Below, piece after piece: positions 48,883 to 53,669 of a DNA stretch of 64,000 bases. The stretch lies in the NCBI RefSeq assembly GCF_988242995.1, contig NZ_OZ547043.1, one strand, 5' to 3'. The notes under the pieces were generated by a model. The model was given only the letters and a program-made list of their open reading frames with translations. It was not told where the DNA came from and searched no databases. A program made the position numbers and the translations under genes. Within the stretch, counting starts at the first letter, position 1; every line of letters begins with the position of its first letter.

Positions 48883-49070
48883 GCCTGATGCGACGCTGAC
48901 GCGTCTTATCAGGCCTACAAGACCCGAGCACAGAACCGTAGGCCGGATAAGGCGTTCACGCCGCATCCGGCATTCAGTGCCTGATGCGACGCTGACGCGT
49001 CTTATCAGGCCTACAGGTCCCGAGCACAGAACCGTAGGATGGATAAGGCGTTTTACGCCGCATCCGGCAA
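48883..49070. repeat. tandem REP/BIME units (about 96-bp period)
   Basis: GCCTGATGCGACGCTGACGCGTCTTATCAGGCCTAC...GCCGCATCCGGCA repeated twice nearly identically. Confidence 0.85.
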
Positions 49071-50576: not shown

Positions 50577-51971
50577 TCAATATGCCGCTTTGTTAACGAA
50601 GCCTTTGAATACCGTCAGGAAAACGATTTTGATATCGAACCAGACGCTCCATTCGCGGATGTACTCAAGGTCGAACTCGACGCGTTTTTCCATTTTCTCC
50701 AGCGTGTCGGTTTCGCCGCGCCAGCCATTAATCTGCGCCCAGCCGGTAATGCCCGGTTTCACCTTATGGCGCAGCATGTAGCCTTCAATGAGCTGGCGAT
50801 ACTGTTCGTTATGCGCCACCGCGTGCGGACGTGGACCCACAATCGACATCCCCCCGGTCAGCACATTGATAAACTGCGGCAGTTCATCCAGCGAGGTGCG
50901 GCGCAGAAAGTTCCCCACTTTGGTGACGCGCGGATCGTTCTGCGTCGCCTGAGTCACCACTTTGTCGTTCTCCATCACTTTCATAGAACGGAACTTCCAC
51001 ACTTTGATCGGCTTGCCATCCATGCCGTAGCGAGTCTGGCGGAAAATAACCGGCCCCGGTGAGCTCAGTTTCACCGCCAGCGCAATGCAGCACAGCACCG
51101 GGGAGATCAGCAGCAGGATAAGCGTCGCCAGCACAATGTCTTCTGCACGTTTTATCAGACGGTTAACCCCGGAAAGCGGCGTGTCATACAGCGGCACCAC
51201 CGGTACGCCGTTCATCTCTTCGATACGGGAATGGAGAATGTTGAAGGTAAAGACATCGGGGATCAGCAGCACCGAACAGGTGGTGTCCGCCAGTTGATGG
51301 ACCAGTTTTTTCACTCGCGCGCCGTCGCACATCTGCATCGCGATATAGACGTTATGAATCTTGCCCGCTTTCGCATCCTCGACCAGTTGTTGCAGATTGC
51401 CCGCCCAGTCGTTAGAAACGCCGCCCGGTTTTGGGTCGTGGTATACGCCCACCACTTCAAACCCTAACCACGGCTGATTACGGAAGCTCTCCATCAGCAT
51501 TTGTCCGGCGGCTAAATCCCCCGCCACCGCGACCATCCGCTTGTTATAGCCATGATTACGCAGCCAGCCCGCCCCAATGCGAATACATGAACGGCAAACC
51601 ACCAGTCCGATGCTGGTCAGCCCATACCACGCCAGCCAGATTTTCAGTTGCGTGTCGAAATCATTGTTGAACGCCACCAGTCCGGCGCTGAAAATCACGC
51701 TTAAGGTCCAGTTTTGTAGCAGCAGGGCAAATTCTGTCGCGGCCCGAACACCGCGCCATGAGCGATAAAAATCGGTGATGCCGCCCAGCATCTGGAACAC
51801 CACCAGCGTAATCAGCGCCACCAACAGGTGCATGTAGAGGAATGACAGTCCGCTGACTTCGCAAACCAGCCATAGCCCGGCAAACATGATGGTGATATCT
51901 GAAAAGCGTTGCACCATAGAGATTAACGATGCATTGGTTTTCGCTCGCTCGCGCTTTTTTAGATTTGTCAT
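50577..51971 (-). CDS. wcaJ: UDP-glucose:undecaprenyl-phosphate glucose-1-phosphate transferase
   Basis: 464 aa; conserved sugar-transferase C-terminal domain. Confidence 0.85.
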   Translation of the reverse strand: MTNLKKRERAKTNASLISMVQRFSDITIMFAGLWLVCEVSGLSFLYMHLLVALITLVVFQMLGGITDFYRSWRGVRAATEFALLLQNWTLSVIFSAGLVAFNNDFDTQLKIWLAWYGLTSIGLVVCRSCIRIGAGWLRNHGYNKRMVAVAGDLAAGQMLMESFRNQPWLGFEVVGVYHDPKPGGVSNDWAGNLQQLVEDAKAGKIHNVYIAMQMCDGARVKKLVHQLADTTCSVLLIPDVFTFNILHSRIEEMNGVPVVPLYDTPLSGVNRLIKRAEDIVLATLILLLISPVLCCIALAVKLSSPGPVIFRQTRYGMDGKPIKVWKFRSMKVMENDKVVTQATQNDPRVTKVGNFLRRTSLDELPQFINVLTGGMSIVGPRPHAVAHNEQYRQLIEGYMLRHKVKPGITGWAQINGWRGETDTLEKMEKRVEFDLEYIREWSVWFDIKIVFLTVFKGFVNKAAY

Positions 51972-51993
51972 CGTTGTTCCTGTTATATTGTCG

Positions 51994-52094
51994 CCTCGCC
52001 CCTCACCCCGGCCCTCTCCCCAAAGGGGCGAGGGGGAGAAGAAAGTTCCGTGCTCACTTCTCTCCGCAGGCAGTAGAGCGTCAGGGTGAGGGGG
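51994..52094. repeat. GC-rich interleaved inverted repeats in the wcaJ-cpsG spacer
   Basis: CCTCGCCCC pairs with GGGGCGAGG; CCCCTCACCCC pairs with GGGTGAGGGGG. Confidence 0.5.
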
Positions 52095-52106
52095 AAAGTA
52101 ATGACA

Positions 52107-53477
52107 TTACTCGTTCAGCAACGTCAGCAGAGTTCGCGTTCGCGCTTCCATCAGCGGCACATCACCGCGCGATTCCACATTCAGGCGCACCACCGGTTCG
52201 GTGTTGGAGGAGCGCAGGTTAAAGCGCCAGTCGGCAAAGGTCATGCTGATACCATCGGTGCGATCCACCGCCAGCGCCTCACGACTAAAATGCTGTTCGA
52301 CGCGATTAATCGCCTCAACGGGTTGCGCCAGTTTGCTGTTGATCTCACCGCTTGCCGGAAACGCCGCCATCCGGTCGCGCACCAGTTCGCCCAGCGTTTT
52401 TCCTTTCAGGCACACCAGTTCGGCTACCAGCAGCCACGGGATCATGCCGCTGTCGCAGTAAGCGAAATCACGGAAGTAATGGTGAGCGCTCATTTCGCCA
52501 CCGTAGATGGCGTCTTCCTTGCGCATCCGTTCTTTAATAAAGGCGTGTCCGGTTTTCGACATTACCGGGGTGCCGCCTGCGGCAGTCACCACATCAATAG
52601 TGTTCCAGGAGAGACGCGGATCATGGATGATCTTCGCGCCGGGATTTTTTTCGAGGAACGCTTCTGCCAGCAGGCCGACAATGTAGTAGCCCTCGATAAA
52701 CTGCCCTTTTTCGTCAAACAGAAAACAGCGGTCAAAATCGCCATCAAAGGCAATGCCCATATCCGCGCCGTGTTTGATGACCGCATTGCGGGTGTCGTCG
52801 CGGCATTCCGGCAGTAGCGGGTTAGGAATACCGTTGGGGAAATTGCCGTCCGGCGTGTTGTGCACTTTGATTAATTCCACGGGTGCGCCGAGGGCGTTAA
52901 AGCGGGCTTCGATAGCGTCCACCACCGGACCCGCCGCGCCGTTCCCGGAGTTGATCACCAGCTTGAGCGGCGTGAGGTTTTTGACATTGATATAACCGAA
53001 CAGGTGATCAACGTAAGCATCACGCAGATTGATTTGCTGATAGCGACCGCGTTTGGTTTCATCGACGGGAGGAAAGTCGTTGGCTTCAGCCAGACGCTGG
53101 ACGTCGCGCAGTCCGGTATCTCCGCTGATCGGGCGAGCCCCCTCGCGAACCAGCTTCATGCCGTTATAATCCATCGGATTATGGCTGGCGGTAACTTCAA
53201 TGCCGCCATCCACGCCGAGATGGAACGTGGCGAAATAGATCTCTTCGGTGCCGGACATACCAATATCCAGCACGTCAACGCCCGCATCCTGTAAACCTTT
53301 TGCCAGCGCCAGTTTTAAGGTTTCGCTGGTGAGACGGACATCACCGCCTAACACAATGGTTTTCGGTTTGAGAAATTCGCCATAAGCGCGACCAATGCGC
53401 CAGGCAATATCTTCATTCAATTCTTCGCCTAATTTCCCGCGAATATCATAGGCTTTAAAGCAGGTTAATTTTTTCAT
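52107..53477 (-). CDS. cpsG: phosphomannomutase
   Basis: 456 aa from [14 protein letters not shown]; active-site TASHNP. Confidence 0.9.

Positions 53478-53555: not shown

Positions 53556-53669
<114 letters not shown>

Follow-up and report, generated by a model that had tools for sequence, protein, structure and literature searches.

An inverted pair of BoxC units very probably accounts for the interleaved GC-rich repeats of a cpsG-wcaJ spacer

BoxC, a family of dispersed intergenic repeats of E. coli and its relatives among the Enterobacteriaceae, is reported to go back to work by Bergler and Bachellier in the 1990s and by Hoyne and Maher in 2000-2002. Holder et al. (2015; PMC4666352) treat it as one repeat under three names, namely BoxC, from the 1990s, PIT (potential intrastrand triplex), from the Maher laboratory in 2000-2002, and TMECO. 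A unit is built from one C-block followed by two G-blocks, arranged in the pattern 5'-CCCTCNCCC N3-6 GGGNGAGGG N3 GGGNGAGGG-3', where the second loop sets the type (TTA for type A, CCG for type B) and where inverted pairs always combine one unit of type A with one of type B (Holder et al., 2015; PMC4666352). PIT elements displayed neither promoter nor terminator activity and left RNA polymerase unaffected in tests to which the same authors refer (PMC4666352). Triplex formation was observed in isolated single strands but went undetected in double-stranded DNA or in vivo, and intergenic variability is elevated around the copies; where units are paired, it includes deletions after which a hairpin remains (PMC4666352).

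Two other kinds of repeat are close in general appearance. REP and BIME elements are likewise short, GC-rich, palindromic intergenic repeats of operon spacers, but their sequence is unrelated to that of the element described here, in which the REP consensus is absent. For REPs, both a transposase relative (RAYT) and effects on mRNA stability are on record; for BoxC, to our knowledge, neither has been documented. When a REP stem-loop lies no more than about 15 nt from a stop codon, expression of the upstream gene is reportedly reduced, as described by Liang, Rudd and Deutscher in 2015. MITEs such as ERIC/IRU, NEMIS and RUP share with our element a length of ~100 bp, terminal inverted repeats, a stable RNA fold, and an intergenic, dispersed distribution. 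In the colanic acid operon, to which the locus belongs, a stem-loop attenuator has been described after wzc (PMC2516531).

The element was found in a 64,000-nucleotide stretch of DNA, hereafter the window, whose positions are numbered from its first letter. It is flanked by two open reading frames on the minus strand, 50577-51971 and 52107-53477 in a program-made list, which are wcaJ and cpsG, respectively, by the annotation of a 100% identical record (NZ_CP024240.1); as both genes lie on the minus strand, so does the operon transcript. The repeat falls entirely inside the 135-nt spacer between them and is intergenic. Its features, with the evidence for each, are as follows.

51972-52106, minus strand: cpsG-wcaJ intercistronic spacer in its long allele, 135 nt, within the colanic acid operon, which is transcribed from the minus strand
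51977-51981, minus strand: wcaJ ribosome-binding site, AGGAA on the transcript (sequence, minimum free energy (MFE) fold, comparison of spacers from 67 species)
51994-52003, plus strand: partial extra block CCTCGCCCCT, which is arm A of inverted repeat I3 and reads GGGGCGAGG on the transcript, directly after the motif
51999-52034, minus strand: intact BoxC/PIT/TMECO motif of type B with one mismatched triplet, CCCTCGCCCC-TTT-GGGGAGAGGG-CCG-GGGTGAGGGG (pattern match, 36-nt identity)
52035-52056, no strand assigned: central spacer of the pair, which together with 52057-52065 makes the predicted middle hairpin GGAGAAG/CUUCUCC (inverted repeat I5, MFE, ensemble)
52057-52093, plus strand: decayed type-A-like partner (column-for-column alignment with intact type-A motifs)
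52082-52093, minus strand: 5' arm of the predicted outer stem on the transcript, pairing with 51999-52010 and closing a three-way junction (MFE, centroid, ensemble)

The published family pattern has a single match in the window (52000-52034, minus strand), against 0.00 expected from 100 shuffles. With the terminal G at 51999 included, the motif is identical at 36 of 36 positions to TMECO no. 3, a "type B mm" element of E. coli K-12 (Table 1 in PMC4666352). Indeed, the site has already been catalogued in print: entry #391 of Supplementary Table S8, NC_013361 2875141-2875106, is this very 36-nt sequence (Holder et al., 2015; PMC4666352), and our blastn hit H29, in which positions 2-116 of the query correspond to NC_013361 2875093-2875207, maps it to 52034-51999 of the window, so that #391 is the orthologous wcaJ-cpsG copy of O26:H11.

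The second unit is less well preserved. It comprises a C-block, CTTCTCTCC (52057-52065), a degenerate first G-block, GCAGTAGAGCG (52070-52080), a TCA loop, and an intact second G-block, GGGTGAGGGG (52084-52093), and it aligns with the type-A motifs of two other pairs, one in the wzc-wcaA spacer of strain MEI4BO-21 and one in the lldD-trmL spacer of K-12. While the CCG loop of the left unit marks it as type B, the loop of the partner is TCA rather than the TTA of type A; the partner aligns with type-A units but is decayed, it fails the strict pattern, and on the plus strand it goes undetected even with three substitutions allowed. In this decay the window pair departs from the published family. 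It shares with the K-12 lldD-trmL and MEI4BO-21 wzc-wcaA pairs a "-/+" arrangement, in which the outermost blocks pair with each other; among the five BoxC pairs of K-12, lldD-trmL is the only one of this kind, the other four being "+/-".

No further copy was found in the window: a loose search for the block GGGTGAGGGG, allowing one mismatch, gave nine hits, the six outside the spacer being isolated single blocks dispersed over the window, of which the four at 581-1072, when read, proved to lie inside otherwise unrelated sequence. A scan of 51500-52600 against Rfam 15, with E-values of up to 10, returned chance hits only (E ≥1, at most 16 bits against thresholds of 37-71 bits). Classical REPs are present in the window only at 48903-49049 and 53588-53630 by a REP core scan, and the REP consensus (GCCKGATGCGRCG...CGYCTTATCMGGCCTAC) has no match in 51972-52106, which agrees with the original prediction that the sequence is unlike the REPs seen elsewhere in the window. 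The first of these REP regions holds four classical REP/BIME cores downstream of wzxC and the second two cores in the cpsB-cpsG spacer, so that three consecutive spacers of the operon carry hairpin-forming repeats from two different families; of the wzc-wcaA spacer, the window, which ends at 64000, reaches only 15 nt.

The pattern match, the identity to TMECO no. 3 and the intergenic and dispersed occurrence all liken the element to BoxC/PIT/TMECO, to which the inverted combination of a B unit with a decayed, A-like one may be added. We regard it as very likely, taking both parts together, that it is an inverted "-/+" pair of such units and that it has no dedicated regulatory role.

The inverted repeats that first drew attention to the spacer are real. 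Our repeat search recovers A/A' (I3; 51994-52003 with 52024-52033, 10 nt, 100% complementary) and B/B' (I1; 51999-52017 with 52075-52093, 19 nt, 84%), GC-rich, beyond chance and in the order A, B, A', B', along with further, mutually overlapping pairings (I4, I5 and I8). Arms A and B overlap by 5 nt (51999-52003). Arm A is the partial extra block that follows the motif on the transcript, and in Enterobacter species (sequences L057, L070, L049 and L069) the motif of this locus is likewise followed by an additional G-block of a similar kind.

Folded as the minus-strand transcript, the 135-nt spacer is predicted to be stable, at -59.0 kcal/mol (z -3.84, with none of 200 shuffles as good); the plus strand reaches -56.6 kcal/mol (z -2.45), and the spacer folded as DNA -26.2 (z -2.88). 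Both the MFE and the centroid structure are a nested three-way junction, closed by a 12-bp outer stem between 52082-52093 and 51999-52010 (11-12 bp), inside which the MFE structure places two hairpins, 52012-52034 and 52036-52062, together with a small third one, 52065-52080. The expected number of pairs in the Boltzmann ensemble is about 11 for the outer stem, about 8 for the core hairpin and about 6 for the middle one, as against fewer than 0.2 for A-A'. Forcing A-A' yields -41.6 kcal/mol and forcing I4 -45.6 kcal/mol, so that the unconstrained, nested fold wins by 13-17 kcal/mol; A-A' and B-B' compete because A and B share 51999-52003. For a pseudoknot, a rough sum combines the A-A' duplex (-21.0), a truncated B-B' (-18.1) and a loop hairpin (-10.8) with a pseudoknot penalty of roughly 9-10 kcal/mol, which would leave it less stable than the nested fold by about 10 kcal/mol or more, a figure to be read as an estimate only, given that ViennaRNA does not score pseudoknots. 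The predicted RNA ensemble is thus dominated by the nested three-way junction rather than by a pseudoknot or a switch.

The interleaved look is instead a by-product of the near-identical C-blocks and G-blocks, 9-10 nt long, that characterise the family, and not a design specific to this locus. As the blocks are all variants of CCCTCNCCC or GGGNGAGGG, each G-block can pair with several C-blocks, that at 52025-52034, for example, with CCTCGCCCC, CCCCTCACCCC or CCCTCTCCCC, and the same redundancy underlies the triplex potential of the BoxC family in single-stranded DNA. Hence, the original prediction is partly supported: the observation of inverted repeats was correct, while their interpretation as alternative or pseudoknot-like folds, and thus as a special RNA device, finds largely no support, and the sequence proved to be what the prediction itself had named as its refutation, a known repeat family of no special interest.

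Dispersal is evident from a blastn search with the 116-nt query against 5426 complete E. coli genomes, which detected 28077 places in 4610 of them, with a median of 6 and a maximum of 15 per genome; nearly all are chromosomal, just 15 of the 28077 being plasmid-borne. Further copies were seen in two spacers of other strains, araD-araA and wzc-wcaA, and upstream of yagE, and the unit is found at unrelated loci in both orientations relative to the genes. The K-12 copies are intergenic as well, and the RefSeq record of K-12 carries no repeat feature at BoxC sites. An example of variation between strains is the araD-araA spacer, which in O111:H8 (L005, 1500-1600) holds a single type-B unit, identical to that of the window and adjoining a REP pair, and in K-12 (L007) no unit by the strict pattern, making this site another presence/absence polymorphism. 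The wzc-wcaA spacer, in turn, holds an intact "-/+" BoxC pair in MEI4BO-21 (L006, 1502-1587) and a classical REP in K-12 (L101, 199-290).

At the cpsG-wcaJ locus itself, E. coli has two alleles, a long form in 514 genomes, the only ones with a full-length copy of the query, and a short form in 4130; about 11% of the genomes with the locus thus have the element and about 89% do not. In the short allele, 113 nt are replaced by 35 nt that form a simple hairpin, CCCTTACCC-loop-GGGTAAGGG, of -17.1 kcal/mol. This hairpin, found in K-12, most E. coli, Citrobacter and Salmonella arizonae, has the same position as the BoxC pair and the same polarity, a pyrimidine arm followed by a purine arm, and its arms are one compensated position apart from the outer arms of the pair, CCCTCACCC/GGGTGAGGG. 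It differs from the pair in its length (35 instead of 113 nt), in having a single 10-bp stem and no triplex-type third block, and in occurring at one place per genome. From the cpsG stop codon (52107-52109) to the main stem, the distance is 13 nt in the long allele, whose main stem opens with the 5' arm of the outer stem, and 10 nt in the short one.

As E. whittamii, Citrobacter and Salmonella arizonae have the short hairpin, the long allele is derived within E. coli, and the same decayed half and centre in all five divergent long alleles sampled, that of E69 included, indicate a single origin. The coding flanks of long alleles are as different from one another as from those of short-allele strains, with no clustering by allele. 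In a comparison of only five sequences from long-allele strains, the flanking coding DNA varies more than the element does, a point against the explanation favoured here. Relative to the window, the E69 allele (L017, spacer positions ~72-106) has a 7-nt deletion in the last G-block, a 1-nt deletion and two substitutions, which are secondary decay of the element within E. coli. The long and short forms also differ in the bases beside the arms, and there is no target-site duplication; judged by its sequence, the long allele is not a clean insertion. The centre of the element resembles both the Enterobacter copies at the same locus and other E. coli pairs, that is, both candidate sources, and does not single out horizontal transfer or intragenomic copying as the origin of the long allele.

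To place the two alleles in a wider context, we collected the corresponding spacers from GTDB species representatives by way of the WcaJ N-terminus and could delimit them in 67 species (L017-L096). Nearly all contain a stable stem-loop shortly after the cpsG stop and ahead of the conserved wcaJ ribosome-binding site; the folds have a median z of -2.96, with 79% below -2. The binding site, unpaired in the predicted fold of the window spacer, is part of ACAGGAACAACG-ATG, a stretch that most of the Enterobacteriaceae species sampled have kept unchanged or almost unchanged. The stem-loop takes the form of 1) a simple hairpin, in 36 species, 2) a compact four-block unit (L042, L057 and L067), or 3) a full inverted BoxC pair. 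The arms of the simple hairpins are quite different in sequence, and in 34 of the 36 the polarity is the same, a pyrimidine arm and then a purine arm. A TMECO-like unit, with at most three substitutions, is present in 22 species, 16 of which have "-/+" pairs, and the order of the A and B halves at this locus varies between genera.

Because MAFFT was unable to align hairpins with different arms, RNAalifold found no consensus structure in 30 short spacers, and pair counting was therefore limited to 12 alignable sequences from Escherichia, Citrobacter and Salmonella. In these, 97.5% of the cells are paired, against 40-68% in slid controls, and two stem pairs have changed on both sides. This is modest evidence, as the events are few, the species related, and palindromes may be kept perfect by template-switch mutation.

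Among the alternatives, the one that survives best, although we still think it unlikely to be the principal explanation, is that the element matters through a non-B structure at the level of DNA, namely an intrastrand purine-motif triplex or a G-quadruplex of the G-rich strand (GGGGAGAGGGCCGGGGTGAGGGG, with four G-runs), or a cruciform, which would stall replication and create an indel hotspot. DNA of the same 36-nt sequence type (type B mm) forms a stable single-strand triplex in vitro, with a Tm of about 70 C, by CD and NMR (PMC4666352), and the elevated variability around copies (PMC4666352), the G-quadruplex-type motif on the transcript strand (51999-52021, minus), the indel polymorphism of the locus in E. 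coli and the further 7-nt deletion inside the motif in E69 are all in line with this. On the other hand, the triplex was seen neither by in vivo DMS footprinting nor by CD and NMR of double strands, and NMR argued against a quadruplex (PMC4666352); that NMR evidence concerns a DNA quadruplex, not an RNA quadruplex on the mRNA. Further, a strongly unstable site would not be expected to have only two major alleles in about 4650 genomes, and such a structure would describe a side effect rather than a function, compatible with the reading of the element as a BoxC pair without dedicated role.

Somewhat less probable, in our estimate, is that the spacer needs a functional intercistronic RNA hairpin, of which the BoxC pair is one interchangeable supplier, acting as a barrier to 3'-5' exonucleases, as a partial attenuator comparable to the stem-loop after wzc (PMC2516531), or as a structure near the stop codon that lowers CpsG output. 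The recurrence of a stem-loop at the same position in 67 species despite very different arms, its low z-scores and uniform polarity, the paired cells and double-sided changes of the 12 aligned sequences, the similar distance from the stop codon in both alleles and the REP or BoxC pair that alternate in the wzc-wcaA spacer of the same operon all speak for such a hairpin. Against it stand the tests in which PIT/BoxC elements showed no terminator activity or effect on RNA polymerase (cited in PMC4666352), the small number of covarying pairs, two, in related species, and the capacity of template-switch mutation to produce compensatory changes without selection. A U-tract is missing too: what follows the outer stem is CGAGGCGACAAUAUAAC, which does not qualify it as a rho-independent terminator, and a consensus scan found no promoter or intrinsic terminator inside the element. 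The same scan picked up a weak terminator-like hairpin at 52102-52126 (minus), overlapping the last codons of cpsG, with 10 pairs, only 3 of them G-C, and the tail TTACTTTCCC; it is probably a chance match. Our literature search found nothing specific on a cpsG-wcaJ stem-loop. Still, the conserved hairpin and the two compensatory pairs hint, from sequence comparison, at a selected role, and "no function" would then be too strong a statement.

We consider it improbable that the pair, about 100 bp long and bounded by the inverted arms CCCCTCACCC...GGGTGAGGGG, is a MITE-like non-autonomous transposon inserted in the spacer, even though it is dispersed, polymorphic in its presence, and found across genera with its A and B halves in either order at this locus, and even though its centre is partly kept between copies (GCACGGARCTKTCTT is common to the window and L041, and AAGTTCC to the window, L040 and L055). 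Unlike MITEs, the window pair has neither a target-site duplication nor a clean empty site, the short allele differing beside the arms too, nor a known cognate transposase, and we know of no transposase for the BoxC family as a whole. In line with this, Holder et al. (2015; PMC4666352) did not find the family associated with transposons, phages or plasmids, and plasmid-borne places are rare in our own search.

Finally, that A-A' and B-B' are alternative folds of an RNA switch or pseudoknot regulating the operon is very improbable: A-A' is indeed a perfect 10-bp helix, its duplex being worth -21 kcal/mol, and the order A, B, A', B' is real, but the two arms share 5 nt, forcing A-A' costs 17 kcal/mol and leaves it a negligible weight in the ensemble, and the unit recurs at unrelated loci in both orientations, is lacking from most E. 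coli with the locus and has no Rfam match.

On the reading we favour, that of an inverted BoxC pair without a dedicated regulatory role, the ancestral 35-nt hairpin (CCCTTACCC...GGGTAAGGG) would have been replaced by the pair in the long-allele fraction of E. coli, as the outgroups suggest. The published deletions at paired sites leave a hairpin (PMC4666352); at this locus the change seems to have run the other way, from an ancestral hairpin to a derived pair. The element would then be structure-prone repeat DNA, of a kind associated with local indel variability, and would at most carry on a generic role of the ancestral intercistronic hairpin, such as shielding the mRNA upstream of it against 3' exonucleases or making termination slower at the cpsG stop codon close by.

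As a catalogued copy of a repeat family for which no function has been demonstrated, in an operon of well-known organisation, the cpsG-wcaJ element is a minor finding, and its apparently interleaved, pseudoknot-like design is settled as a by-product of near-identical blocks. The long and short alleles nevertheless constitute a natural two-allele system in which the effect of BoxC on flanking genes could be tested in an isogenic setting, and a positionally conserved hairpin that alternates with BoxC units offers a modest clue to the origin or persistence of the family. A bolder view, to which we give little credence at present, is that the cpsG-wcaJ spacer, and perhaps operon spacers generally, need a stem-loop with a pyrimidine arm and a purine arm near the upstream stop, and that BoxC units are elaborated or interchangeable versions of it. 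If true, BoxC would act like REP as a stabiliser or attenuator at the level of mRNA, and its spread would track selection for hairpins rather than the formation of DNA triplexes.
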